DNA from: an uncultured delta proteobacterium
GTDB lineage: Bacteria > Myxococcota_A > Polyangia > Polyangiales > Houyiibacteriaceae
NCBI GenBank assembly: GCA_963699755.1
Contig: CAVOVB010000002.1
Coordinates: 288,001-352,000 of the forward strand
DNA length: 64,000 nt
Direction of reading: 5' to 3'
How positions within the stretch are numbered: the stretch's first letter is position 1; each line of letters begins with the position of its first letter. The notes beneath the pieces were generated by a model. That model did no database searches. It saw nothing but the letters and a program-made list of their open reading frames with translations, and was not told the origin of the DNA. Shown here in pieces: positions 5,176 to 19,074 of the stretch. A program made the translations under genes and the position numbers.

Positions 5176-6039
5176 ATGCCTGACACAGTTTTGATCGCTG
5201 GCTGTGGTGACGTGGGAAACGCTCTTGCGGCGAGGCTCCTAGACGAAGGGTGTGAAGTTTGGGGCGTGCGCCGTCGTGTCGAGGGTCTGGGCCAGGGGGT
5301 TCGGCCCTGGCGTATTGATCTCTCCGAGCCGCGCGGTTTCGGTTCCCCACCCGCCGCTTTCGACTACCTATTCTATACTGCGAGCGCAGACCGTCGGGAC
5401 GAGGACCACTACCGGTCGATCTACGTCGACGCCCTGCGAGACCTCCTGGCTGCGCTGCGGGCGGCCCGCTGCCCCCTTCGGCGTGTCTTTTTCACCTCGA
5501 GCACCGCCGTATACGGCCAAGGTGCAGGCGAATGGGTCGACGAGGACTCGGCGACCGAGCCGCTTGGGTTCAACGGGCGCGTTCTTCTAGAGGCTGAAGC
5601 CATCGTTCGCGAGGGACCGGAAACGGGAATCAATCTACGGCTATCGGGGATCTACGGTCCCGGACGCACCCGATTGGTCCGGAACGTTTGGAGCGGGGAG
5701 GCGAGCCCAACCGCAAGCTGGACCAACCGGATTCACGTCGAGGACTGCGCGGGCGCGCTGCACCATCTAATGCGCGTCGACGATCCGAAGGCCCTCTACC
5801 TGGGCTCTGACGACGAGCCCGTGACCAGCGCTGATCTGACGACCTGGCTCGCCGAAGCGCTCGGCGTGCCCGCACCCACGAAAAAAGAAACCGCTCGATT
5901 GAACAAGCGCTGCCGAAACGCCCGGCTCCGAGAGTCGGGCTATCAGTTCGAGCTGCCGACGTTTCGCGAAGGCTATCGGCCGATCGTCCGGGAGTTCCTG
6001 AGGGACGTCAGCGACCCGGGTGCGAGCGACCAGCGCTAG
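5176..6039 (+). CDS. NAD-dependent epimerase / atypical SDR (YeeZ-like)
   Basis: IAGCGDVG, SSTAVYG, LRLSGIYGPGR, NRIHVED. Confidence 0.85.
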   Translation: MPDTVLIAGCGDVGNALAARLLDEGCEVWGVRRRVEGLGQGVRPWRIDLSEPRGFGSPPAAFDYLFYTASADRRDEDHYRSIYVDALRDLLAALRAARCPLRRVFFTSSTAVYGQGAGEWVDEDSATEPLGFNGRVLLEAEAIVREGPETGINLRLSGIYGPGRTRLVRNVWSGEASPTASWTNRIHVEDCAGALHHLMRVDDPKALYLGSDDEPVTSADLTTWLAEALGVPAPTKKETARLNKRCRNARLRESGYQFELPTFREGYRPIVREFLRDVSDPGASDQR

Positions 6040-6356
6040 CCAGTTCGGTGAATGATGTGAAAGCCGAAAGGCGTCTCTACCACATCGCTCGTCTCCCCCA
6101 CTCCAAGCGCGAACGCGGCATCTTCGAAGCCCTTGACCATCTGGCCGCGGCCGAAACCACCCAGGTCACCCCCTGCCTGGGCGGAGCCGCAATCGGAGTG
6201 CGCACGCGCGAGGGCGCCGAACTCGGCACCGTCTCGAAGCTGTTGCGCAATGTCGGCGATCTGAGATTGAGCTTCTTCTTTGCTTCGGGTTGCGGAGGAG
6301 CGGTCGGAGCCCGCATACATGAGAAGGATGTGTGAGGCGTTGATCTGTTCTGCCAT
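6036..6356 (-). CDS. Parvulin-type peptidyl-prolyl isomerase
   Basis: ASHILL, SDCGSAQAGGDLG, FEDAAF, TPFGFHII. Confidence 0.95.
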   Translation of the reverse strand: MAEQINASHILLMYAGSDRSSATRSKEEAQSQIADIAQQLRDGAEFGALARAHSDCGSAQAGGDLGGFGRGQMVKGFEDAAFALGVGETSDVVETPFGFHIIHRTG

Positions 6357-6403: not shown

Positions 6404-7795
6404 TCAGTCGCTAATGGACTTCAAGCGGCCCGAACAGCGGAGCTCCACAGCAGCACGATCGACTTTGCCCGAACGATTGACGGGAAACGAATCGAGGAGG
6501 CAAATGCGCTTGGGTCGTTTGTGCGGCGCAAGCTCCCGTTCGAGCTCTCGTCGGAGCTGGTCGACGCTGAATCGTGCTCGGTCAGTCAGGAGAGCCGCAA
6601 CCACCTCTTGACCCCAGTCGTCGTGCGGCAGCGGAAAGACACAGGCCGAAACGATTCCATCGACGGATTCGAGCCAAGCTTCGACCTCCTGAGGCGCGAC
6701 GTTTTCCCCGCCCGTCACGATGATGTCGTCGATGCGTCCCCCAACGAGCAGCTGCCCGTCGGGCAAGAAGGCGCCAAAGTCGCCGGTACGAAGCCAGGCG
6801 TCCAGCGTCCAGGGCTCGCCGCTTCGATCTTCACCCAGGTATCCATCCATCAACGTGTCGCCGCGAATCTGAATCTCGTCATCCACGATCCGAACATCGA
6901 TGCCGCGCAATGCTGAGCCTGAGCCGGGCTGGCCGCTTTGTTCAGGCGCTTGTGTCGTGACCTGAGAGCAAGCTTCGGTGCACCCGTAGGTGGCGAGGAT
7001 CGGGACCCCTCGACTTCTGGCACGCTCGCGCAAGGCAGAAGGAAGCGGCGCACCGCCAACCAAGACCGCGCGAAGCTCCGGGCTCGGCTCCCAGATGGGG
7101 TCTTCGAGCTGGAGCAAGCGGCGAAGCATGGTTGGCACGACGCTCAGGAGCGTTATGCGGTTCTCAGTCATCAGGCGGCTCAGCGCACGGGGATGGAAGG
7201 GACCGGGGCCCAACACGATGCAGCGCCGGGCAATGAGCGATCGGGTGATGATCGACAAACCGCCGACATGGGCCGGTGGCATGCACAGGAGCCAGCGGTC
7301 CTCAGGAAGCCAGCCGAGATTCGCGGCATGCGCAGCTTCCGAAGCGATGAACGCGCGACGAGATAAGCGAGCTCCGCGAGGCGCACCGCTCGAACCCGAC
7401 GTGTAGGCGATCGCCAGGGTCTCCTCGTCGGCGACCGGTGCGGGCTCCGCGAACGGCTCGGCGGGCGCATCGACCGGGACCGCGCCCTCGATCCGGTGCG
7501 CGGGCACCGACTCGGTCAACAGGAAGGCCCGTTCGCGATCGCGGAGACCTGGATGTAGTAGCACCGCCGGGCAGCCGAGCTCGAAGAGGGCGTATAGCCA
7601 AACGATCGAGTCAAAATCCAGCTCGGGCGTGAGCGCAACCCTATCCCCGGGCTTGACCCCGCGAGCCCCAAGCGATGCAACGGCTCTCTGAACACGGATC
7701 GCGACATCTGCATACGACCAAGCCCTGCCGTCTGCGATCAGGCAGTCACGGCCTGGATCTTCGCGTGCCGCAGCGAGCAGGCTCAGCTCAGTCAT
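6404..7795 (-). CDS. menE: o-succinylbenzoate-CoA ligase
   Basis: AMP-binding motifs YTSGSSG, YGCTE, TGD, GGENV, SGK; HVGGL; last gene of men operon; ATG at 7795 overlaps menC end. Confidence 0.88.
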   Translation of the reverse strand: MTELSLLAAAREDPGRDCLIADGRAWSYADVAIRVQRAVASLGARGVKPGDRVALTPELDFDSIVWLYALFELGCPAVLLHPGLRDRERAFLLTESVPAHRIEGAVPVDAPAEPFAEPAPVADEETLAIAYTSGSSGAPRGARLSRRAFIASEAAHAANLGWLPEDRWLLCMPPAHVGGLSIITRSLIARRCIVLGPGPFHPRALSRLMTENRITLLSVVPTMLRRLLQLEDPIWEPSPELRAVLVGGAPLPSALRERARSRGVPILATYGCTEACSQVTTQAPEQSGQPGSGSALRGIDVRIVDDEIQIRGDTLMDGYLGEDRSGEPWTLDAWLRTGDFGAFLPDGQLLVGGRIDDIIVTGGENVAPQEVEAWLESVDGIVSACVFPLPHDDWGQEVVAALLTDRARFSVDQLRRELERELAPHKRPKRICLLDSFPVNRSGKVDRAAVELRCSGRLKSISD

Positions 7796-8861
7796 CGGAG
7801 CCCTCTTCGAATTCAAGGCCCAAACCCGGCGCGTCATGCGGGACGATGAGCCTGTCTCGAATCGCCGCGATCCGGTGGGGCGGCCAGAGCCCAAGCGCCG
7901 GATGCTCGCCGAGGCCGGCAGCGAGCTCGGTTTGGAGTGCGAGCGCAAGCTCAGCGGTGGCGGCGCGGGCAATCGGGCCATCGAACGTGTGCGACACCAG
8001 GTATCGGGCGCCATGAGCGGCTGCGCGCTCGGCGATTTCGAACGAGGCACGCAAACCTCCCAGGACCATTGGCTTGATGACCACGGCGCTGATCCGGCCG
8101 CTCTCGAGTAGCCGCCGAGTAAGCGCCCGATCGCGAAGCGATTCATCGAGGGCGAAAGGCAGCGGCAGGCCCAACGCGGTCGGCCAGTCCTCGGGCGCAA
8201 CGGGTTCTTCGATCAGCTCCAGCTCGAGGGCTTCGAGCACGTCGGCATTCTGCCGAAGCGCTGCGACAGGGACGCGGCGGTTCGCGTCGAGACGAAGCGG
8301 GAGCATCGGATGTGCACTTCGAATCGATCGAAGGGCTTCGATCTCTGATTCGAGATCAGATCCAATTTTGAGCTTCAGGTGCGTTGCACCGTCGGCGACT
8401 AGCTCATCGGCGCGCTGCGGCCATGAGCTGGCGTCCGCGGTCATGACGAGGTCTGCGATGGAGATCGCAGATCGCTCCTCGTCGCCACCCAGCACCCGAT
8501 GCACCGGTTCGCCCCGAGTCTGACCAAGCCAAGCGAGCAGCGCCGTCTCTAGTGCGAAGCGAGAAGACGGTTGCTTCAGCGGCCGCGCGGTAAACGCATC
8601 CTCGAGTAGCCGAAACGGGCTTGCCAATGGGTCCGCAACGAGCGGCGCATCAGCGAGCTGCTGGAGCTCCTCGGCGACATCGGCGAGCACATCCGGAGAA
8701 TAGCCAGGCAGCGGGGAGGCTTCACCGAGCCCAGTGGTGCCGTCGCTGCGCATGAGCCGAATCACCGCGAACGCCCGCCTGAGGAGGCCTTCGGCTCCGC
8801 CCAGGAGCGCCTCCGACAGCTCGCCTTCGAGCAGGTCGATCTGCGCGTGAAGCTCGGTCAC
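7788..8861 (-). CDS. menC: o-succinylbenzoate synthase (enolase superfamily)
   Basis: [34 protein letters not shown] start overlaps the menA stop (GTGA). Confidence 0.88.
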
Positions 8862-9748
8862 GCCAGGATCCCAATCGCGAAGAGCACACCGAACAGGGAA
8901 AGAAGCTTCGCTGTGCCGGCGAGCGTTTGATTGAGAACGACCCCGCGATCGTGGGCAACCGAGCGATAGAGCCGAATCGCCCAGACCATCGTGAGAAGAG
9001 GAAGGCAGACCCAGGCGCTGCTCCAACCGAGAAGGAACATGCCGATGGGCATTGCGTATGAGAGGAGCAGCAGGAGGGCGTATTCCCGCACACCGGCTTC
9101 CCTGCCGAATCGAACGACGAGCGTCGTCTTGCCAGCCCGGCTGTCGCCTTCGAAGTCGCGCACGTTGTTCACGACCAGAATCGCGGTAGCAAGGGCGCCG
9201 ATTGGAACAGAAGCGAGCCAAGCGATCGAGGGAACATAGAGCGCCTGCACGAACGCCGTTCCACAGACCGCCACGAACCCGAAGAACGCCATCACGAAAA
9301 CATCGCCGAGGCCGTTGTAGGCGAGCGGCAACGGGCCGCCGGTATACGCAAGGCCCGCGGCCATCGATGCGAGGCCGATTGCGACCACGACCGGGCCAGC
9401 AATCCACGCGAGATAGAAGCCAGTCCCGAGCGCAAGCCCGAAGGCGACCAGGATTCCACGACGGAGCTCGGGCACGCTGAGTAGACCGGCCTGAGCCGCA
9501 CGGGTGGGGCCCAGGCGTTCTTCGGTGTCGGCGCCCTTTTGAAAGTCGAACATGTCGTTGGCGAAATTGGTCGCGACCTGAATCAGAAAGGCGCCAAGCA
9601 AGGCAGCAAGCGCAGCATCCCAGCGAAATCCACCCGCCCGCCATGCGCAGGCGGTACCCACCGCAACCGGCGCGAAGGCCGCCGTGAGCGTCGCCGGGCG
9701 CGCGGCGACAATCCAGGCGCCCATCGAGCCGGGGGCGATCTCGGTCAT
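8858..9748 (-). CDS. menA: 1,4-dihydroxy-2-naphthoate polyprenyltransferase
   Basis: [47 protein letters not shown]. Confidence 0.95.
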
Positions 9749-10494
9749 CGGCGCGCCAACTCCTCGACTCGCTTCAGCGCGGCAGCAACGACGGCCGGCG
9801 CTTCGAGCAAGACGTTGTGACCCACGCCATCGACGAGCTGCACCTCGATGTGCGCGTTGTCTGCTGCAAGCGCTGTGGCGACCTTGGAGAACTTCGAATC
9901 GAGCGAGCCAGTCATGAGGACGATCGGAATTTCGAGAGACGCGAAGGCAGCAGCATAGTCGGGCATCTCCGCCAAGCCCAGGATCTCGAGGGATCGGGCC
10001 AAGCCCTCCGGATCGTGGGCGAGCCGGTTCTCACGCTGCACGGCCAAGCGTTCCGGGGGAAGCGCGCGTTGGCTCGCGAAGAGGGGCAACGCTTCCCAAG
10101 CCGCGACGAAACACGCAAGCCCTTTCTCACGAAGCAGGCTCGCACGGCGGGAATCGATTTCGCGACGCTCGTCGCGAGCGGCTTGCTCAGTGAGGCCCGG
10201 GTGAACCCCGATTAGAAGCGCGCCGTCAAACAGGTTCGGCTTGGCGGCCAGCATCCCCAGCGCAAGCCGCGCACCGAGCGAGTAGCCACAAACGAAGCGG
10301 GGTTGGGTGATGTCAGACTGAAATGAGATGAGCCGCGACACTTCGTCCTCGAACGAGTCGATGGCCCTGCTCCGCCAATCGACCCCGTGACCGGTCAAAG
10401 CCGGAATGCACGGCAAGTCGCTGAGGTCGGCGCAATGGAGCATGGGATCGTAGCTTCGCGGCGAGCCCGTGAAGCCGTGCAGGAGCGTCCACAT
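9745..10494 (-). CDS. menH: SHCHC synthase (alpha/beta hydrolase)
   Basis: LHGFTGS, GYSLGAR, W..LPLFASQ, DSKF, GHN; lies between menD and menA. Confidence 0.9.
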
Positions 10495-12278
10495 CAAGAC
10501 GCCTCGCGCTGCAGTGCCCGCTCGACCCGAGCGATGAGATCGCGTCCTTGATGCAGCGCGCTATGTGGCGGCACCAACGCCTCGATGACGGTGCAACCTT
10601 CTCGTCGGTATCCAAGCTCGAGGGCTTGGCGCAACCCGATCACCGTGTCGACGCTTTGGAATGCGCATCCATAGAGCGAAGCGGCAGAGTGCAGGTCGGC
10701 ACCATGAGGAGTCGTGAAATAGGGGAGCCAGGCCTCCTTGCCGTCTCCCGCGATCGGCAGCTGCTCGAAGATCCGGCCGCCGCCGTTGTTGACCACCACA
10801 ATCACCAAAGGTCCCGCCAGCTGGGACGCCAACTGAAGCCCATTGATGTCGTGTAGGAAGCTGACGTCACCAATCAGCAGTGTCGTCACGCCGTCAACCC
10901 AGGACGCGACGCCAGCGGCGCAAGATACGACGCCGTCGATTCCACTCACGCCGCGCTGAGAGCAAACAGCCAGAACCTTCTTCCCGGGCGGCACCCACAT
11001 GTCGACGTCGCGGATCGACAGGCTATTTCCAACCACCAATGAGCTAGGGTCAGGGAGTGCATCGAGCAACGTGCGGGTTGCTCCAGCCTGTGTGAGCAGA
11101 TCACCGGCCTGAGCAACGATCGCCGATGCCTCGTCCCATACGGCGGACTCCGCCCACTCAAAGCCAGCCACGAAGTCTTCGTCGCGGCGGACCGGTCTGT
11201 AGGCAGACGAGCAAAGCGCGGTAAGGAAGGAACCGATGTCGGCTTGGACGATCGCCTCGGCGCTCGAGCTGGGGTCCGCCCATTCCCAAGGATGCACGAC
11301 GATGCGTCGAATCCGATGCGCTGCGCAAAGCTGCTCCCAGCCCCTGGAGGTCGGGCTTGCACCGAGCTGCAGAACGAAGTCCGGGAGGCACATCGACCTC
11401 CCACTCTCGGTTCGCCAAATGGTGTCGAACGCACCCAGCGCACGGGACTTCGCCCAGCACCGGAACTGACTCGTGGTTTCAGCAAGGACCAAGGCACCGG
11501 AACGCTCGGAAAGCTCGTCGAGCGCGTCGACGAACATCGCACTCCGCAGGTCGGCGGGACCGCATAGAATGACCGGACGCGCCGCGGCATCGAGCGCCTC
11601 GGCAACCGAATCGACGAGCAGCGGGGAAACGTGCTCGATGAGCTTCGGGTCGAGTGGTCGCGCGCGATGGAGCTGGGTGAGCGGCTCGCCGAGGATCGCA
11701 TCGACTCGCAAGGCGAGCTCGCGGCTGGCTGGCGCTGGCTCTAGTGGTTTGCGGGCCTGTGCATTGATGTGAACCGGACCCGGCTTGACACCGAGGGCTT
11801 CGGACACCGCCTGTGCGACGATGCGCCTGGCGGCCCGCAGGCTCGCCTCCTCGTCACGCGGTTCTCCGAGATTCGCGAAGAAGCGAACTTTGTTTCCGTA
11901 CAGCCCGATCTGATCCGTCGTTTGGTTTGCGCCGCAGCCATGGAGCTCAGGAGGTCGATCGGCGGAAAGCACGACCAGCGGAACGCCTGCCTCGCTCGCC
12001 TCGATGACGGCCGGAAAGTAATTGGCCGGCGCGCTTCCGGAAGTGCACAAAAGGAGCGAAGGCCGCAAGGTGCACCGCGCCTGACCAAGGGCGAAATAGG
12101 CGGCCGAGCGTTCATCCAGCACGCTCGTGCACTCGAGCTCCTCGTTTTCGAGGGCCGCGATCACGAAGGGCGTGGAACGCGACCCTGGACTGATGATCGC
12201 GTCCACGATGCCGGCTTGAACGAAGCTCTCGATGACGAGCCTCGCCCACGCGCTTTGAAGCTCAGCGGCCGTCCCCAT
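10494..12278 (-). CDS. menD: SEPHCHC synthase
   Basis: SPGSRSTP, DERSAAYFALG, CTSGSA, ADRPPEL, QRGVSGIDG, GDVSFLHD, NNGGGRIF; ATG at 12278. Confidence 0.96.
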   Translation of the reverse strand: MGTAAELQSAWARLVIESFVQAGIVDAIISPGSRSTPFVIAALENEELECTSVLDERSAAYFALGQARCTLRPSLLLCTSGSAPANYFPAVIEASEAGVPLVVLSADRPPELHGCGANQTTDQIGLYGNKVRFFANLGEPRDEEASLRAARRIVAQAVSEALGVKPGPVHINAQARKPLEPAPASRELALRVDAILGEPLTQLHRARPLDPKLIEHVSPLLVDSVAEALDAAARPVILCGPADLRSAMFVDALDELSERSGALVLAETTSQFRCWAKSRALGAFDTIWRTESGRSMCLPDFVLQLGASPTSRGWEQLCAAHRIRRIVVHPWEWADPSSSAEAIVQADIGSFLTALCSSAYRPVRRDEDFVAGFEWAESAVWDEASAIVAQAGDLLTQAGATRTLLDALPDPSSLVVGNSLSIRDVDMWVPPGKKVLAVCSQRGVSGIDGVVSCAAGVASWVDGVTTLLIGDVSFLHDINGLQLASQLAGPLVIVVVNNGGGRIFEQLPIAGDGKEAWLPYFTTPHGADLHSAASLYGCAFQSVDTVIGLRQALELGYRREGCTVIEALVPPHSALHQGRDLIARVERALQREAS

Positions 12279-13617
12279 GGAGCGCTCCCAGAAGCGCCTG
12301 CATTTTGAGCTCGGTTTCCGCGTACTCCGCATCGGGATCGGAGTCGGCCATGATTCCGGCGCCAGCGTAGACCCAGGCCTTTCCGTCGCGTAGCAGTCCG
12401 GAACGAAGCGCGACCACGAATTCGCCATCGCCGGCAGCGTCGACCCAACCCACCGGAGCGCTGTACCAACCGCGGGCCTGGGCCTCGTGCTCGACGATCC
12501 ATCGAATCGCTTCGTTCGTTGGAACGCCCCCCACGGCCGGCGTGGGGTGCAGCGCTTGCACCAGGGCCAAGATGTGAGTCGGCTCGCGCAAACGCCCTTC
12601 GATAGGCGTCTGCATGTGCAAAAGATTTGGAAGCTCGCGAACGCTTGGCTCCGGAGCGGAGCGAAGCGAATCACAGAACGGCTCGAGCGCCTTGAGGATC
12701 GCCTGGACCACCAACTGATGCTCCTCCCGCTCTTTGGAGCTCTCCATCATTCGTGCTGCATCACCATGGGTCGTCGATCCGGCCAGAGCCTCACTCAAGA
12801 CCGATGGACCCCGACGCGAGATCAGAAGCTCTGGCGTCGCGCCCAGGAATGCGGCGTCGCCGCGCCAGAGTGCGAATCGAGTGCAGCCGGGAAAGCCGCC
12901 TTCGAGGCGCTTGAGAACGTCCAGTGAACCGGCTCCCGTCTCGAGCTCGACGACACAACGCCGCGCGGCGACGACTTTCTCGAAGATCCCGTTCTGGATC
13001 TCATGACGAATGTCACCAACCTGGCGCGACCAGGTCTCGCGATCGGCTTCTTCGATGCGACGGACCGAAACGGGAGGCGGAATGACGCCGATTGGGCGTT
13101 CCAGGCTGTCCCAGATCGCATCGAACACGTCGAGCGCTTGCTCGGCGGCTGGGCGTTCCAAACCGCAGGCTGCGAACGAGAGCCAAGCGCGCTCGTCGAC
13201 TTGATAGGTCCAGGTCGGCAGGAGCAAGAAACCATCTCCAAAGCTCTCCCAGGGCATCTGCCCCGCCGCACCCGGAGCAAAGGAGGCCCCGCCAAATACC
13301 CGGGGCGTGGGACTCGCTTCATGCGCAATATGGCTCGTGTGATCGAAGAAGTCACCGATGGACGGGGCATTGGTCGGTAGAGTGGTCGCCACTCCAATCC
13401 CGGAGCAGGCGGTGCCTTTCGGTGGATCCCAGAGAATGCTCGCCTCGTGCGGAAAGGCACGAAGCAGGGCATCGGGCGGCGCAACCGGCGCTGGCACGGT
13501 GACGATGAGGTGATTTACCTCGGAGCGATGCGCGTTCAATGCCTGCTCGAGGAGTGACCGCGAGCTTTGCCGAACCGCTGCGCCGTCGAATGCAAAAGCC
13601 GCGCTCTGCGACCTCAT
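12262..13617 (-). CDS. menF: Isochorismate synthase
   Basis: KVVAAR, GATPELL, ALAGS, KEREEH, LHPTPAVGG, RGWY, ALRS, AGAGI. Confidence 0.93.
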   Translation of the reverse strand: MRSQSAAFAFDGAAVRQSSRSLLEQALNAHRSEVNHLIVTVPAPVAPPDALLRAFPHEASILWDPPKGTACSGIGVATTLPTNAPSIGDFFDHTSHIAHEASPTPRVFGGASFAPGAAGQMPWESFGDGFLLLPTWTYQVDERAWLSFAACGLERPAAEQALDVFDAIWDSLERPIGVIPPPVSVRRIEEADRETWSRQVGDIRHEIQNGIFEKVVAARRCVVELETGAGSLDVLKRLEGGFPGCTRFALWRGDAAFLGATPELLISRRGPSVLSEALAGSTTHGDAARMMESSKEREEHQLVVQAILKALEPFCDSLRSAPEPSVRELPNLLHMQTPIEGRLREPTHILALVQALHPTPAVGGVPTNEAIRWIVEHEAQARGWYSAPVGWVDAAGDGEFVVALRSGLLRDGKAWVYAGAGIMADSDPDAEYAETELKMQALLGALHGDGR

Positions 13618-14345
13618 GATGCGGCCCCTCGTGGCTCAGCCACGTACAGATTGCAGGCGCCGAAGGTGAGCGGGTTCACTTCGAGCACGTTCAAGCCGGA
13701 AGCCCGCATCTGATCGGCGAACTCATCGGCGGGCGGAAAGGCCGCGATTGATTCTTGAAGGTACTTGTACTCGCGCGAGCCCGACAGCATCCCACCAAGT
13801 CGCGGAATCACTTTGCGAACATGGAAGCGGGCAATCGGACTGAGCCAGCCCACGCTCGGCTCGCCAAGCTCCAGCACCGCGACGCGGCCGCCGGGTTTGG
13901 TGACCCGCGCCATTTCGGCGAGCGCGGCGCTTCGATCTGGAACGTTGCGTATGCCAAACGCGATGCAGCAACCGTCGAAGGCGTCAGTCTCATAGGGAAG
14001 CGCCTGTGCGTCACCCAGCTCGAGCCGTACGCGATCGGCAACACCGCTTCGTGCCACTTTCTCGACACCCACTTCGAGCATTCGACTCGAAGGATCGCTT
14101 CCGACGACCTGCGCGTCGGGGTGACTTCGGGCGATCATGAGGGCCAGGTCGCCTGTTCCGGTTGCGAGATCGAGCACGCGAGCCCCGGCGGACAGCTTCA
14201 GCGCAGCAACGGTTTTTCGACGCCAGGACTGGTCGATGCCCATCGACATCAACCTGTTCAGGAAGTCGTAACGGCCCGCAATCTGGTCGAACATCTCCCC
14301 CGAGCCCGGATTGGGCGAGCTGGTCTCTTGGACCGCTTCGCTCAC
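13614..14345 (-). CDS. menG: Demethylmenaquinone methyltransferase (UbiE/MenG)
   Basis: MFDQIAGRYDFLNRLMSMGID..WR, LDLATGTGD, FGIRNV, YKYLQESI; GTG start overlaps HMGR stop. Confidence 0.93.
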   Translation of the reverse strand: MSEAVQETSSPNPGSGEMFDQIAGRYDFLNRLMSMGIDQSWRRKTVAALKLSAGARVLDLATGTGDLALMIARSHPDAQVVGSDPSSRMLEVGVEKVARSGVADRVRLELGDAQALPYETDAFDGCCIAFGIRNVPDRSAALAEMARVTKPGGRVAVLELGEPSVGWLSPIARFHVRKVIPRLGGMLSGSREYKYLQESIAAFPPADEFADQMRASGLNVLEVNPLTFGACNLYVAEPRGAAS

Positions 14346-15556
14346 TGAGCACCTCGTTCGAGCTTCTTGGCTTGCAGCCGTGCGTTCTCCTGCACCTCCT
14401 GCTTGCGAGAATGGAGCCTCATGTGACCGCGCTGGATGCCCTCCCCGGCCAGTGCGCGAAGCGCCGCCAAGTTCGATGCCATGCCAGCCGCACCCATGAC
14501 GACGGCGAGCTCCCCCGCATTCTGGATGCCCATGAGCTCGAAGCCGGCGCGAACGCCACGATGGACACGCGTCGAGCCGCCGACGGTACCGACGGCCATC
14601 GGCATGTCGAGCTCCCCGTGCACCCCACTCTCGGTGCGGCTCCAAACGACGAGCGGCCTATAACGCCCGGTCAGCGCAGCGAACGCGTGGGCCCCCGCTT
14701 CAATGGAGCGCCAATCCTGCCCCATCGCAAGGGCCACCGCATCGATGCCGTTCATCACGCCCTTGTTGTGCGTAACCGCGCGGAAGGGATCGAGCTCAGC
14801 AAAGCGGCTCGCCTTCACGATGCCGTCTGCGAGCTCCGGGCCACCGAGTGCATCGACACTCACGTCGCAGCGCACTTTGATGCGACGTCGCAGAGGCAGA
14901 TTGCTGAGGATGCGCAAGCCGACCGTGCCGCCGGTCAGCTCCTGGATTCGTGGAGCGACAGCTTCGGCGACCGCGTCTACGACGTTGGCGCCCATCGCAT
15001 CGCCCACGTCGACGTAAAGATGCACGACCAAAATCCCGTCGTCTTCGTCGAGCACGCGCACGTCGAGATCACGGGAGCCACCGCCCCGCTCGACCATGCC
15101 CGGGATTGCTTCGTCTGCGATCTGGAAGATGAGATCACGCTCGGCTTCCACGCGGACCTTCGCCGCTTGCGGATCGGGCACATCATCGAACTGCACCTGC
15201 GTCGTCATGATCGGCGCCGTAGCCTCGCCAAAGAAGCCGCCGGTCATACGCACCTGACGCGCAGCGTTCGATGCCGCCGCGACGACCGAAGGCTCCTCCA
15301 CCGACATGGGTACCAAGACGTCGTTGTTGTTGACACGGAAATTGAGCGCGATCGCGAGAGGCAGACCGTGCACGCCGATCACGTTCTCGCTCATGCGGTC
15401 GGCGACCTCGAGCGTGAGGCGCCCGCCGTCCTGAAGATGCCTTACCGAATCCTCGGATAGCAGGCCGGTATCGATCATAGTTCGCAGCCGCTGCTCGACA
15501 TGCTCGCGGTAGAACCCCGGGATGCGGCTAGTCACGGTTGGTGGTTGCTTGGACAT
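14342..15556 (-). CDS. mvaA: Class II HMG-CoA reductase
   Basis: ENVIG, EEPSVVAA, DAMGAN, THNKG, GQDWR, GTVGG, GIQRGHMRLH. Confidence 0.95.
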   Translation of the reverse strand: MSKQPPTVTSRIPGFYREHVEQRLRTMIDTGLLSEDSVRHLQDGGRLTLEVADRMSENVIGVHGLPLAIALNFRVNNNDVLVPMSVEEPSVVAAASNAARQVRMTGGFFGEATAPIMTTQVQFDDVPDPQAAKVRVEAERDLIFQIADEAIPGMVERGGGSRDLDVRVLDEDDGILVVHLYVDVGDAMGANVVDAVAEAVAPRIQELTGGTVGLRILSNLPLRRRIKVRCDVSVDALGGPELADGIVKASRFAELDPFRAVTHNKGVMNGIDAVALAMGQDWRSIEAGAHAFAALTGRYRPLVVWSRTESGVHGELDMPMAVGTVGGSTRVHRGVRAGFELMGIQNAGELAVVMGAAGMASNLAALRALAGEGIQRGHMRLHSRKQEVQENARLQAKKLERGAQ

Positions 15557-15580
15557 CGATGACTCTTTCCTGGTTGCTCG

Positions 15581-16651
15581 CTAGGACTCCCGGTGGACGG
15601 TGGCGCGAGCCACCGTGATCAACGCATCTCGTGCCCGCCCCTCGGGCAGCCCGTTTAAGGCCGAACAGGCCTCGTCGGCTTTGTGAATCGCCAGCTCGCG
15701 CGTCGCCTCGAGCGCGCCCGTCAGTTTCAGCGCGGACAGTAATTCCGACTTCGCTGCGTCGGACACCTCGTCTACAGGGCTCGCGACCAGCTCCTCCAGA
15801 ACAGACCGGAGTGAAGGGTCCCGCTCGAGGGCGACAATCACGGGGTACGTCATCTTGCCCTCGCGCAAGTCGGTGAATGGAGATTTTCCGATCGTCGAGC
15901 TTTCGCCCGCGTAGTCGAGCTGGTCGTCGATCAGTTGAAACGCGACACCGAGGTGAAGCCCATACTCTTCGAGCGCCTGGCACGCTCCAGGGTCGAGACC
16001 GCCGGCCCGGGCGCCCGCGAACATCGCCCAGCGGAAAAGCGCAGCCGTCTTTCCCTCGACCACCTGCATGTAGGTATGCATGCGGGCGTCGATGCGGCCA
16101 CGGTTTTCGAGCTGAATGGCCTCCGCGAAGATCATCTCGTCGATGATGTCGAGCAAGCGGATCAAAACATCGGGCATTTCGGCAGCTCGAACGCGGCGAA
16201 GCGCATCGACGAGCAACCAGTCACCGGCAAAAATCGACGCGGCATTCCCATAGAGGGTGCGGGCGGCAGGCACACCGCGACGTTGATCACCCGCGTCCAC
16301 GACATCATCGTGCAGGAGCGTCGCACAATGCACGAGCTCCACCGCCACCCCGAACGCGCGCGTCTTGTCGTCGAGGCCCTCTCCGAGCCGCGAGGCCAGA
16401 ACTACGCACATCGGACGGAGCCTCTTCCCAGCAATTTCGAGCAAATGATGCGCGCTCTTGTGCACCAAGCTCTCACCGAGAGGCAGACCCTGGATATTTT
16501 TTTCGAGCTCCGCCATGTCCCAACGCACCAATCCGGCGAGGTCGGCCAAGTCCGCAGAAAGGTCTCGAAGGCCCTGCGAATCGCAGACGGCCTGCAGGCT
16601 TGTCAGCACGTCAGACGACGAATCGGATCGAAGCGCCGCAATCAACGACAT
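15581..16651 (-). CDS. Polyprenyl (hepta/octaprenyl) diphosphate synthase
   Basis: GKRLRP, LLHDDVVD..RRG, KTA.LF, FQLIDD.LD, DLREGKMT; ATG at 16651. Confidence 0.93.
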   Translation of the reverse strand: MSLIAALRSDSSSDVLTSLQAVCDSQGLRDLSADLADLAGLVRWDMAELEKNIQGLPLGESLVHKSAHHLLEIAGKRLRPMCVVLASRLGEGLDDKTRAFGVAVELVHCATLLHDDVVDAGDQRRGVPAARTLYGNAASIFAGDWLLVDALRRVRAAEMPDVLIRLLDIIDEMIFAEAIQLENRGRIDARMHTYMQVVEGKTAALFRWAMFAGARAGGLDPGACQALEEYGLHLGVAFQLIDDQLDYAGESSTIGKSPFTDLREGKMTYPVIVALERDPSLRSVLEELVASPVDEVSDAAKSELLSALKLTGALEATRELAIHKADEACSALNGLPEGRARDALITVARATVHRES

Positions 16652-16682
16652 CTCGGGCCTCCGCTGAGTCTTCGCTGGTGCA

Positions 16683-17258
16683 TCAGTCTTCTTCTTCCGC
16701 TGCTTGCAGATCGGCTGGGTTGAGCATGCGACCTGCGACCAGCATACGAACGAGCCGTTCGCCGGCTTTGGATAGGGCGGCGAGCCTTGCAAGTCGCTTG
16801 CGCATGTAGTCCACGCGCCGGCGCTCCTCGCCCCTGAGCTGATCGCGCGCCTCATCGAGAACGCGCTGTGCTTCGCAGAAGGCGTCGCTCGCTTCGCGTA
16901 TGAGGTTGAGCTCCCGGCGTTCGTACACGCGACGAAGGAGCTTCCAAACACTGCTTTCCGCCTGATAGAAGTCTTTTCGTTCACCGGGGAGCCAGGTCTT
17001 GCGCACAGCGCCCCATCGAACCAGCTCCCCGAGGGACAAGCTCACCGCGCTGCTGCTCAGCTGAAGCGTCTCCGAGAGCGCTCCGGTGGTCATCGGCTCG
17101 GGGGAAAGGTAAAGGATCGTCCAGAGCCGTCCCATGTGGCGGCGGAAGCCCCAGAACTCCATCAATCGCCCCATCGCGTCGGCCGCACGAAGTTCGCCCT
17201 CACGCCATAAAGGCTGAGAATCATTCGGTTCTGTCTGTTTGGCGGCTGCGGTGGGCAC
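16683..17258 (-). CDS. GbsR/MarR-family transcriptional regulator
   Basis: FWGF.R.MGRLW..LYLS.EPM, wHTH LSSSAVS.SL.EL..WG.V, GERKDFY; first gene of the men operon. Confidence 0.88.
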
Positions 17259-17274
17259 TCGGGCGGCTCGGTTC

Positions 17275-17292
17275 GTTCAAATTTTATTGAAC
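17275..17292. promoter_or_regulatory. AT-rich palindrome GTTCAA-N6-TTGAAC, candidate operator of the GbsR-family regulator
   Basis: Perfect 6-bp inverted repeat 16 bp upstream of the regulator GTG, in the divergent regulator/ilvD intergenic region. Confidence 0.65.
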
Positions 17293-17391
17293 AGTCGTAG
17301 GACCGGGGCGGGAACGGGTCAAGTCGAAGGTCTCAGGAGCCGAAGCAGGGTGCGGATGAGGGGGATCGGAGTGCTAGACTCTGCAGCCCCC

Positions 17392-19074
17392 ATGAGCAGA
17401 AAACTCAACAAGTACAGCAGTCGAATCACCCAACCCCCGTCGCAGGGCGCATCCCAGGCGATGCTCCATGCAACCGGGCTGAGCAGGGGCGACCTGGACA
17501 AGGCGGAAGTTGGCATCTCGGCGGTCTGGTACGAGGGCAACAGCTGCAACATGCACCTCAACGAACTGGCCGGGGTCGTGAAGCGCGGGGTCGTGGACGC
17601 GGGGCTGGTCGGCATGCGCTTCAACACCGTCGGCGTCTCGGACGGGATTTCGATGGGCACCGACGGGATGAGCTACTCGCTGCAGTCCCGCGATTTGATT
17701 GCCGACTCGATCGAGACCGTCATGGCAGCGCACTGGTACGACGCGAACATCTCGATTCCCGGCTGCGACAAGAACATGCCCGGATGCATGATCGCGATTG
17801 GCCGCCTCAATCGGCCAGCGCTCATGATCTACGGCGGAACGATTCGCGCGGGCCGTGGAAACCACGGCGAGAAGCTCGATGTAGTCTCAGCGTTCCAGTC
17901 CTACGGCCAGCTACTGGCGAAATCGATCGACGAGACCAAGCGCCTCGACATCATCGAGCACGCCTGCCCTGGCGCTGGCGCCTGCGGTGGGATGTACACG
18001 GCAAACACCATGGCATCGGCGATCGAAGCGATGGGCATGTCTCTCCCATATAGCTCCTCGACGCCGGCAGAGGATCCTGGAAAACGGGAGGAATGCTTGC
18101 GAGCAGGCCAAGCTATCAAGCTACTCCTGGAGAAGGACATCAAACCGCTCGATATCATGACACGGCAAGCCTTTGAAAACGCCATGGTGACGATCATGGC
18201 GCTTGGTGGCTCGACCAATGCGGTCCTGCACCTCATCGCAATGGCGCGGGCGGTCGATGTTCCCTTGACGATCGATGACTTCCAAACGGTCAGCGATCGC
18301 GTGCCGTTTCTCGCGGACCTGAAGCCGAGCGGACAGTACGTGATGGAGGATTTGCACCAGGTTGGCGGCACCCCGGCCGTGCTTCGCTATCTGATGGCCC
18401 ACGGCGCGCTTCACGGCGACTGTCTCACCGTCACCGGCAAAACCCTCGCCGAGAATCTCGCGGGGCTTCCCGACTTGAGCGAGGGACAAGACGTCATTCG
18501 TTCTTGGGAAACGCCGATCAAGAAGACAGGACACCTCACGATTCTGCGCGGCAGCCTCGCGCCCGACGGTTCGGTTGCAAAGATCACCGGGAAAGAAGGC
18601 TATCAGTTCAAGGGGCCCGCCAAAGTCTTCAACTGCGAAGAGGACATGTTGGCCGCGATGGAGCACGACGGAATCGAGAAAGGCGACGTCGTCGTCATTC
18701 GCTATGAGGGACCGAAGGGTGGGCCTGGGATGCCCGAGATGCTCTCACCAACCTCGGTCATCATGGGAGCGGGGCTCGGTCAGGATGTTGCGCTCATCAC
18801 CGACGGCCGTTTCTCGGGCGGCTCGCACGGCTTCATCATCGGCCACATCACACCAGAGGCGCAGGAAGGCGGGCCCATCGCCCTGGTGCAAGATGGCGAC
18901 CTCATCGCCATCGACGCCAAGAAGCGATCGATCGATCTCGGGGTGCCCGATGCGGAGCTCGCAAAGCGTCGCGCCCGGTGGAAGGCGCCTGAGCTCAAGG
19001 CCAAACGTGGGACACTTTACAAATATATCAAGAATGTGAAATCCGCTTCGGACGGCTGCGTGACCGACGAATAG
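17392..19074 (+). CDS. ilvD: Dihydroxy-acid dehydratase
   Basis: [49 protein letters not shown] at 17392. Confidence 0.97.

Follow-up and report, generated by a model that had tools for sequence, protein, structure and literature searches.

A GbsR-type regulator and a palindromic box accompany menaquinone genes in Myxococcota: a probable dedicated repressor of vitamin K2 synthesis

No bacterial respiratory quinone is more widespread than menaquinone, and little is understood of how its synthesis is regulated: in the accessible text of the papers cited below, only feedback on the enzyme MenD is described. The window analysed here, a 64,000-nucleotide stretch of contig CAVOVB010000002.1 from an uncultured delta proteobacterium (Myxococcota, Houyiibacteriaceae), contains ten co-directional genes on the minus strand. 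They run from 17258 to 6404 in the order regulator > PPS (polyprenyl, i.e. long-chain trans-polyprenyl diphosphate, synthase) > HMG-CoA reductase (HMGR) > menG > menF > menD > menH > menA > menC > menE. What does a regulator of the GbsR type control from the head of such an operon? Comparison with other Myxococcota makes it very probable that the product of this first gene is a MarR repressor of the GbsR/CydE type whose dedicated target is the synthesis of menaquinone (vitamin K2). The palindrome TTCA-N8-TGAA, hereafter the box, accompanies the quinone genes through rearrangements and mostly occurs where the regulator does, a pattern that suggests a genetic switch dedicated to this pathway.

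In the window, the box lies at the operon head (Table 1). The gap between regulator and the divergent gene ilvD was aligned for 47 sequences, namely the window, 45 close-relative loci reaching ilvD and locus L022. All 47 display TTGAC, TA 18 nt later, 6 further nt and then TTCA-N8-TGAA. A consensus promoter scan missed this operon promoter because its -10 element lacks the last T. When the genome (5.35 Mb) was scored with a matrix built from the sites of 73 relatives, a few of them from the same genus, the window site came out on top with 24.8 bits, versus 21.5 bits for the runner-up, a site within a long open frame. Inspection of 8 of the next 11 matrix sites gave no sign of a wider regulon in this genome, most of them being located inside long open frames or by unrelated genes. 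Within the genus, a conserved extra half-site (17267-17275) follows the box at an offset of 9 bp, and full tandem boxes 18 bp apart occur in other lineages (L188, L284-L286, L291), hinting at cooperative binding.

The original prediction depended on the regulator and HMGR being conserved next to men genes in relatives. Both were found beside men genes in all 47 loci from close relatives, to the extent covered by each contig; these loci all belong to close kin, and some come from the same genomes that are designated below by G numbers. The full gene run is present in 28 of them, the order is intact to the contig end in the remaining 19, and none is discordant. A profile built from 13 regulators was run against 201 genomes of the phylum and gave matches, some of them weak, in 123. 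From the 150 matches listed, 60 regulator loci were picked by hand; the genus of the window genome was passed over, as were most second representatives of any other genus. Of these loci, 42 touch PPS or men genes, either as PPS>regulator (17), in divergent orientation (20) or with the regulator first (5). Since the association of regulator and quinone genes is kept through this shuffling, function is a better explanation than inertia. The exact box heads the PPS/menaquinone unit in 39 of these 42 loci, whatever the gene order; in the PPS-first layout it is situated in front of PPS, about 1.1 kb from the regulator.

In other genomes the regulator gene is remote from the quinone genes, and it appears often to work from elsewhere in the genome. 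With the motif fixed beforehand, we compared 20 such genomes with 20 genomes lacking a regulator match, both sets being hand-picked. The box was detected within 450 bp upstream of PPS in 17/20 remote-regulator genomes versus 1/20 regulator-free ones. Control windows yielded 0/20 and 0/20 downstream, and 1/20 and 0/20 inside the gene, respectively. The contrast holds inside six families (f1, f14, f24, f29, f39 and f40), and the box precedes PPS in two of three further remote-regulator genomes. In front of the remote regulators themselves, it was found at only 1 of 18 loci. The most telling case is G170, a member of the same family as the window genome: its ilvD, synthase, HMGR and men genes are arranged identically, but regulator and box are both absent. 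G013, from the same genus, has lost the in-operon regulator; it retains promoter and box, and possesses a remote paralogue.

Boxes also occur at quinone genes other than PPS. Among 30 hand-picked regulator-bearing genomes, 26 have a menG match, and 15 of these have a box no more than 1.5 kb ahead of a separate menG; at further menG loci of family f23 it was detected in 1/6. Box-led men units comprise DAHP synthase>menG>menFDHACE (G190) and DAHP synthase>menG (G224), and units with the latter beginning are also found in f23. Box-led units of the futalosine route extend from menG to mqnE, mqnC and mqnP (G219) or from menG to mqnC (G027), and in G122 the regulator is divergent from synthase>mqnE>mqnC. 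Where a gene intervenes between PPS and HMGR or menG, it encodes DAHP synthase in six of seven cases scanned, the seventh being a radical SAM protein. In all eight loci of family f26 (L284-L291; for example L284:5873-8203:+), DAHP synthase and HMGR are even encoded by one open frame, inside a box-led PPS>fusion>menG>menF>menD unit. The constant targets would hence be PPS together with men or futalosine genes, HMGR and DAHP synthase being accessory. Recruitment of the latter two to the quinone unit supports the earlier idea that HMGR serves quinone supply. The f26 fusion joins the entry enzymes of the shikimate and mevalonate pathways. A radical SAM gene is located inside one regulator>PPS>men unit (L178:7088-8101), and a cholesterol oxidase gene follows menE in another (L417:2142-3743).

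Several observations speak against this interpretation. The box is missing in 3 of the 42 adjacent loci and in 3 of the 20 remote-regulator genomes (in two of these three, PPS lies inside a longer operon), as well as at 11 of the 26 menG loci, and regulator-free G099 has a weak box match. In the set without a regulator, PPS is perhaps not always first in its unit, and one locus offers only 145 bp of upstream sequence. The genomes are hand-picked and related, so the counts are not independent trials. The eight fixed bases are not enriched genome-wide (54 seen versus 52.7 expected), nor is the bare motif remarkable in the window (1 match versus 0.51 expected); the case therefore rests on position and conservation. 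Exact boxes are absent in this genome from menB and from the lower mevalonate cluster. Outside Myxococcota, the box geometry recurs in Rhizobium, 40 bp ahead of a GbsR-type gene that precedes cydD (L409), but of two other proteobacterial GbsR-type loci only one has a site, with one mismatch; in the 300 bp upstream of the other there is none.

The regulator matches the MarR_2 and CudC (GbsR-type) models only weakly, with a CudC score of 54.9 bits against a cut-off of 218. The same weak CudC match was obtained for 13/13 aligned members of the group, and identity to the closest named records reaches 73-89%; JGI annotates many homologues as "GbsR (MarR family)". Among solved structures the best match is MJ223 (1ku9; profile E 2.4e-24, fold E 2.1e-9). 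The predicted model (pLDDT 83.8) has helices up to residue 81, a beta wing at 85-100 and long helices at 104-174. As modelled, the protein fits the GbsR family, with an N-terminal winged helix-turn-helix and a C-terminal helical dimerisation domain. Across 96 aligned proteins, six residues do not vary (W36, F38, G43, L79, R115 and E116) and two hardly do (W46 and R155).

We considered the two roles familiar from this family. The choline-cage positions 93, 94, 96, 97, 100 and 101 correspond to V104, W105, L107, L108, V111 and Y112 in a register set by spacing pattern rather than direct alignment, so that two of six are aromatic; the subfamily consensus (L W M I V F) is mostly aliphatic. As the cage is absent, the CudC score is far under the cut-off and no betaine or Opu genes occur among the scanned neighbours, an osmoprotectant role was rejected. 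A link to cydAB was likewise rejected, because cytochrome bd subunit I (PF01654) was not found in the genome. The regulator thus shares the fold family (MJ223 template) of the osmoprotectant repressors GbsR, OpuAR and OpcR of Bacillus and CudC, and differs from them in cage and neighbourhood. It shares several features with CydE of Alishewanella sp. WH16-1 and CioR of Chromobacterium violaceum, GbsR-type repressors of cytochrome bd operons: all belong to the GbsR/MarR family, are encoded by the first gene of their own operon and share a respiratory theme. The CydE footprint, as published, contains TTCA-N8-TGAA and a further TTCA 18 bp on (PMC6096048). The window box has the same geometry, and the tandem boxes of relatives have the same 18 bp spacing. 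In contrast to CydE and CioR, the targets here would be genes of quinone synthesis instead of a quinol oxidase, in a multi-operon regulon often controlled in trans, and the best relatives of the family in a plasmid collection are only 27-34% identical.

The position of the box at the promoter suggests that the regulator acts as a homodimeric repressor, and direct binding and repression would agree with CydE, CioR, GbsR and OpuAR. We propose that the dimer blocks the promoter of its own operon by binding the predicted box, which covers the expected transcription start. Tail precursor (HMGR), tail (PPS), ring (menFDHCE), their joining (menA) and methylation (menG) would thereby be limited in one step. 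A signal would release the repressor, and autorepression would reset its level. Regarding this signal we can only guess. Shortage of the quinone pool or respiratory redox stress is a plausible though tentative choice; something else would be rather unlikely, and prenyl diphosphate, as for CrtR (see below), a little more so. Bacteria using the futalosine route do not pass through 1,4-dihydroxy-2-naphthoate (DHNA). As the regulon covers both men and futalosine routes, DHNA is an unlikely signal.

It might be argued that the regulator is mainly a sensor of prenyl diphosphate for long-chain prenyl supply, with ring genes having joined later. CrtR of Corynebacterium glutamicum is a precedent: this MarR-type repressor of carotenoid genes is described as autoregulated, as binding over the promoter and as released by isoprenoid pyrophosphates (PMC5401885). 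Like CrtR, our regulator is a MarR-superfamily protein beside a prenyl synthase operon, with a box over the promoter. Moreover, PPS is the most constant target, and the conserved R115, E116 and R155 may be counted on the same side. However, CrtR controls carotenoids, not respiratory quinones, and the likeness drawn here is one of description. Operons limited to ring genes (DAHP synthase, men or mqn) have boxes of their own, induction of HMGR by a substrate would amount to positive feedback, and the cluster with isopentenyl diphosphate isomerase (IDI) and farnesyl diphosphate (FPP) synthase lacks an exact box in this genome. We thus regard such a sensor as unlikely and retain dedication to quinone synthesis.

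Most genomes of the genus encode two GbsR-type paralogues, one in the operon and one remote. In this genome the latter (L021:8906-9454; C3:680917) adjoins pilin-like genes and the gene for a sigma-54 response regulator, in a 19-kb stretch devoid of the box, and it is a candidate trans-acting partner. In a quick tree restricted to regulators from the phylum sample, without CydE or GbsR as outgroup, in-operon copies form their own group (8 rows, support 99) and the remote paralogue falls among the regulators common in Polyangiales (32 rows, support 97). From this grouping, and from G013, which keeps the box with only a remote copy found, one could suppose that the remote paralogue is the sole working repressor in the genus and that the in-operon gene has diverged and become redundant. 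This is improbable, given that the in-operon gene is intact and found in 17 of 18 relatives, with 65-90% identity within the genus, and that it retains the invariant residues of the subfamily. The box of the genus may be bound by the in-operon copy, the remote one or both. A distant GbsR-type gene of G021 (L035:10388-10927) has two boxes before itself and none before the synthase; it represents a separate, probably autoregulated subgroup.

The presence of HMGR in the operon raises the question of isoprenoid supply. It is the only tblastn match in the genome and contains the motifs ENVIG, EEPSV, DAMGAN and HNKG and the C-terminal His motif, which we take to be catalytic. Outside the genus, HMGR also resides inside PPS/men units of 18 genomes, a count from which G013 and one duplicate locus were dropped. 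Type 2 IDI, a short-chain prenyl synthase and mevalonate kinase cluster elsewhere (C1:1049000-1054300). A search of the genome for Dxr found none, and mevalonate is hence probably the only route to isoprenoids. HMG-CoA synthase was found neither by PF01154 and TIGR01835 nor by tblastn with a relative's enzyme; in the genus it is present in 12 of 28 genomes, in G009 directly before IDI (L349), and was not found in the other 16. Leucine breakdown through LiuC is a candidate source of HMG-CoA, this branch point being discussed for Myxococcus xanthus in the accessible part of PMC5389471.

The missing synthase, together with the name "degradative" of the matching model TIGR00532, could mean that this class II HMGR works in the degradative direction or has nothing to do with quinone supply. 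We consider this very unlikely: mevalonate kinase and type 2 IDI are present without Dxr, no second HMGR was found, the leucine route may provide HMG-CoA, and HMGR recurs in quinone units and is fused to DAHP synthase in one family. The original prediction that a single regulator tunes isoprenoid flux to quinone demand is supported, with corrections. The box does track quinone genes and co-occur with the regulator; tuning of flux is still conjecture, since HMGR alone, and not the cluster of IDI, FPP synthase and kinase, is under the box. HMGR itself holds as a target, though as an accessory and not a constant one. The regulator would often act from elsewhere in the genome, and the genus has two paralogues.

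That the box is purely the autoregulatory site of the regulator, with quinone genes as passengers and real targets elsewhere, is hardly credible: the sole strong site in this genome does precede the regulator, and GbsR-type proteins are known autorepressors, but the box remains with PPS and not with the regulator where the two are apart, and G013 keeps it without an in-operon regulator.

Two further systems may be compared with a repressor dedicated to quinone synthesis. The mxq (myxoquinone/menaquinone) cluster of Myxococcus and Corallococcus comprises analogues of menG, F, D, H, A, C and E, with no menB listed in the accessible text (PMC8955186). It starts with DAHP synthase>menG, as do box-led units of f23 and G190. 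Unlike the operon studied here, its list in Table S5 of that paper has shikimate genes and a P450, and no polyprenyl synthase, HMGR or regulator. The second system is feedback of DHNA on MenD in Mycobacterium tuberculosis and Staphylococcus aureus, described along with FNR-independent synthesis (PMC9835592, PMC6257245, bioRxiv 841569, each as far as accessible). Both are pathway-specific controls of menaquinone, but MenD feedback is allosteric and concerns one enzyme and one route. Its authors state, in the text available, that little is known of the regulation of the pathway.

Regulator family, fold and operator type are already known, and the pathway-wide target is apparently undescribed. 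No dedicated menaquinone regulator turned up in the full-text literature searched, which covered few subscription papers or regulon databases; in the same literature we came across no quinone-biosynthesis regulator of the GbsR family, in line with the original prediction. A survey of GbsR proteins sorts members by cydAB, betaine synthesis, Opu and other transporters and leaves 73/179 unassigned; the words "quinone", "prenyl" and "myxo" do not occur in its main text (PMC6207618). Dedication to menaquinone is a likely function for part of this "unknown" class, as delimited in the accessible portion of the survey. Frequent exchange between men and futalosine routes has been reported (PMC13386864, accessible part), and the same box heading operons of both bears on why lineages swap them.

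It is possible, although we advance it with reserve, that an ancient pathway-wide menaquinone switch exists in Myxococcota. Its repressor would read the state of the quinone pool and control tail, ring and both precursor gates (HMGR and DAHP synthase, even fused), and its operator would have been re-attached to whichever ring route was acquired. If so, this family, with CydE and CioR included, would sense the status of the respiratory chain on behalf of quinone supply as well as quinol oxidation. Transcriptional control of the pathway can now be tested directly, on a named protein, a site of 16 bp and listed target promoters, and a sensor of quinone status could serve as biosensor in vitamin K2 production.

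Features of the operon are listed in Table 1; start codons were picked among in-frame candidates. The first junctions have gaps (regulator-PPS +31 bp, PPS-HMGR +24 bp), and the remaining seven overlap by 4-17 bp: HMGR/menG -4, menG/menF -4, menF/menD -17, menD/menH -4, menH/menA -4, menA/menC -4 and menC/menE -8 bp. Such tight junctions suggest that the ten genes are co-transcribed as one transcript. The gene content, order and common direction given by the original prediction are thus borne out by profile matches and coordinates, as are the short or overlapping junctions and the overlap of the HMGR stop with the menG start. Its extent is correct down to 6404; the upper end, set at 17292, lies beyond the true 5' end of the regulator (17258), and the extra stretch takes in the operator. 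Seven men genes stand together in the operon. The pathway is incomplete there, as menB (over cut-off, no box) is located about 100 kb away at C2:190390. With it, the classical set menF, D, H, C, E, B, A and G is complete in the genome, which is rated 100% complete with 9% contamination.

Table 1. Operon genes, promoter elements and divergent neighbour in the window.
Feature	Position	Strand	Evidence
GbsR/MarR-type winged-helix regulator, 191 aa	16683..17258	-	weak CudC NF047500 match, E 8.9e-15, below cut-off; MJ223 best PDB match
PPS	15581..16651	-	PF00348 E 8e-60; octa/heptaprenyl models among top matches; DDVVD and DDQLD motifs
Class II HMGR	14342..15556	-	TIGR00532 370.8 bits (cut-off 260); only HMGR found in genome
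menG, demethylmenaquinone methyltransferase	13614..14345	-	TIGR01934 236.6 bits (cut-off 158)
menF, isochorismate synthase	12262..13617	-	TIGR00543 292.4 bits (cut-off 225)
menD, SEPHCHC synthase	10494..12278	-	TIGR00173 384.9 bits (cut-off 244)
menH, SHCHC synthase	9745..10497	-	TIGR03695 best match, 178.6 bits, under cut-off 208.6
menA, DHNA polyprenyltransferase	8858..9748	-	TIGR00751 and NF004751 over cut-off
menC, o-succinylbenzoate synthase	7788..8861	-	TIGR01927 best match, 97.2 bits, under cut-off 130.6
menE, o-succinylbenzoate-CoA ligase	6404..7795	-	TIGR01923 best match, 277.4 bits, under cut-off 330.2
-35 element TTGACC	17317..17322	-	TTGAC invariant in 47/47 aligned upstream regions
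-10-like hexamer TACGAC (putative)	17294..17299	-	17 bp behind -35; leading TA invariant 47/47; last base non-consensus
Predicted palindromic operator TTCA-N8-TGAA	17276..17291	.	2 bp behind -10, over expected transcription start; 47/47 close relatives
ilvD, divergent neighbour	17392..19074	+	TIGR00110 over cut-off; own conserved promoter-like element

A consensus scan revealed no convincing terminator on the operon strand (14 terminator-like sites versus 11.5 in shuffles). Two estuary metatranscriptomes contain 6-7% of the sampled words, in short contigs of mixed relatives that show neither co-transcription nor the transcription start. A gene for a parvulin-type prolyl isomerase (6036-6356) begins 47 bp after menE, keeps its position across the genus loci read and is possibly co-transcribed. 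Elsewhere in the genome, an AT-rich box match of low score (14.3 bits; L248:8682, C1:370681) lies in a short gap before a molybdopterin oxidoreductase operon, whose oxidoreductase has a PhsA-like best match under the cut-off.

On the other side of the operon, ilvD is probably outside control by the box; it stays in place in G170, which is devoid of both regulator and box. Its promoter-like element (17368-17392), about 15 bp before the ATG and about 75 bp from the box, is conserved in 46/47 loci. The ilvD transcript is possibly leaderless, and the regulator start has no clear ribosome-binding site.

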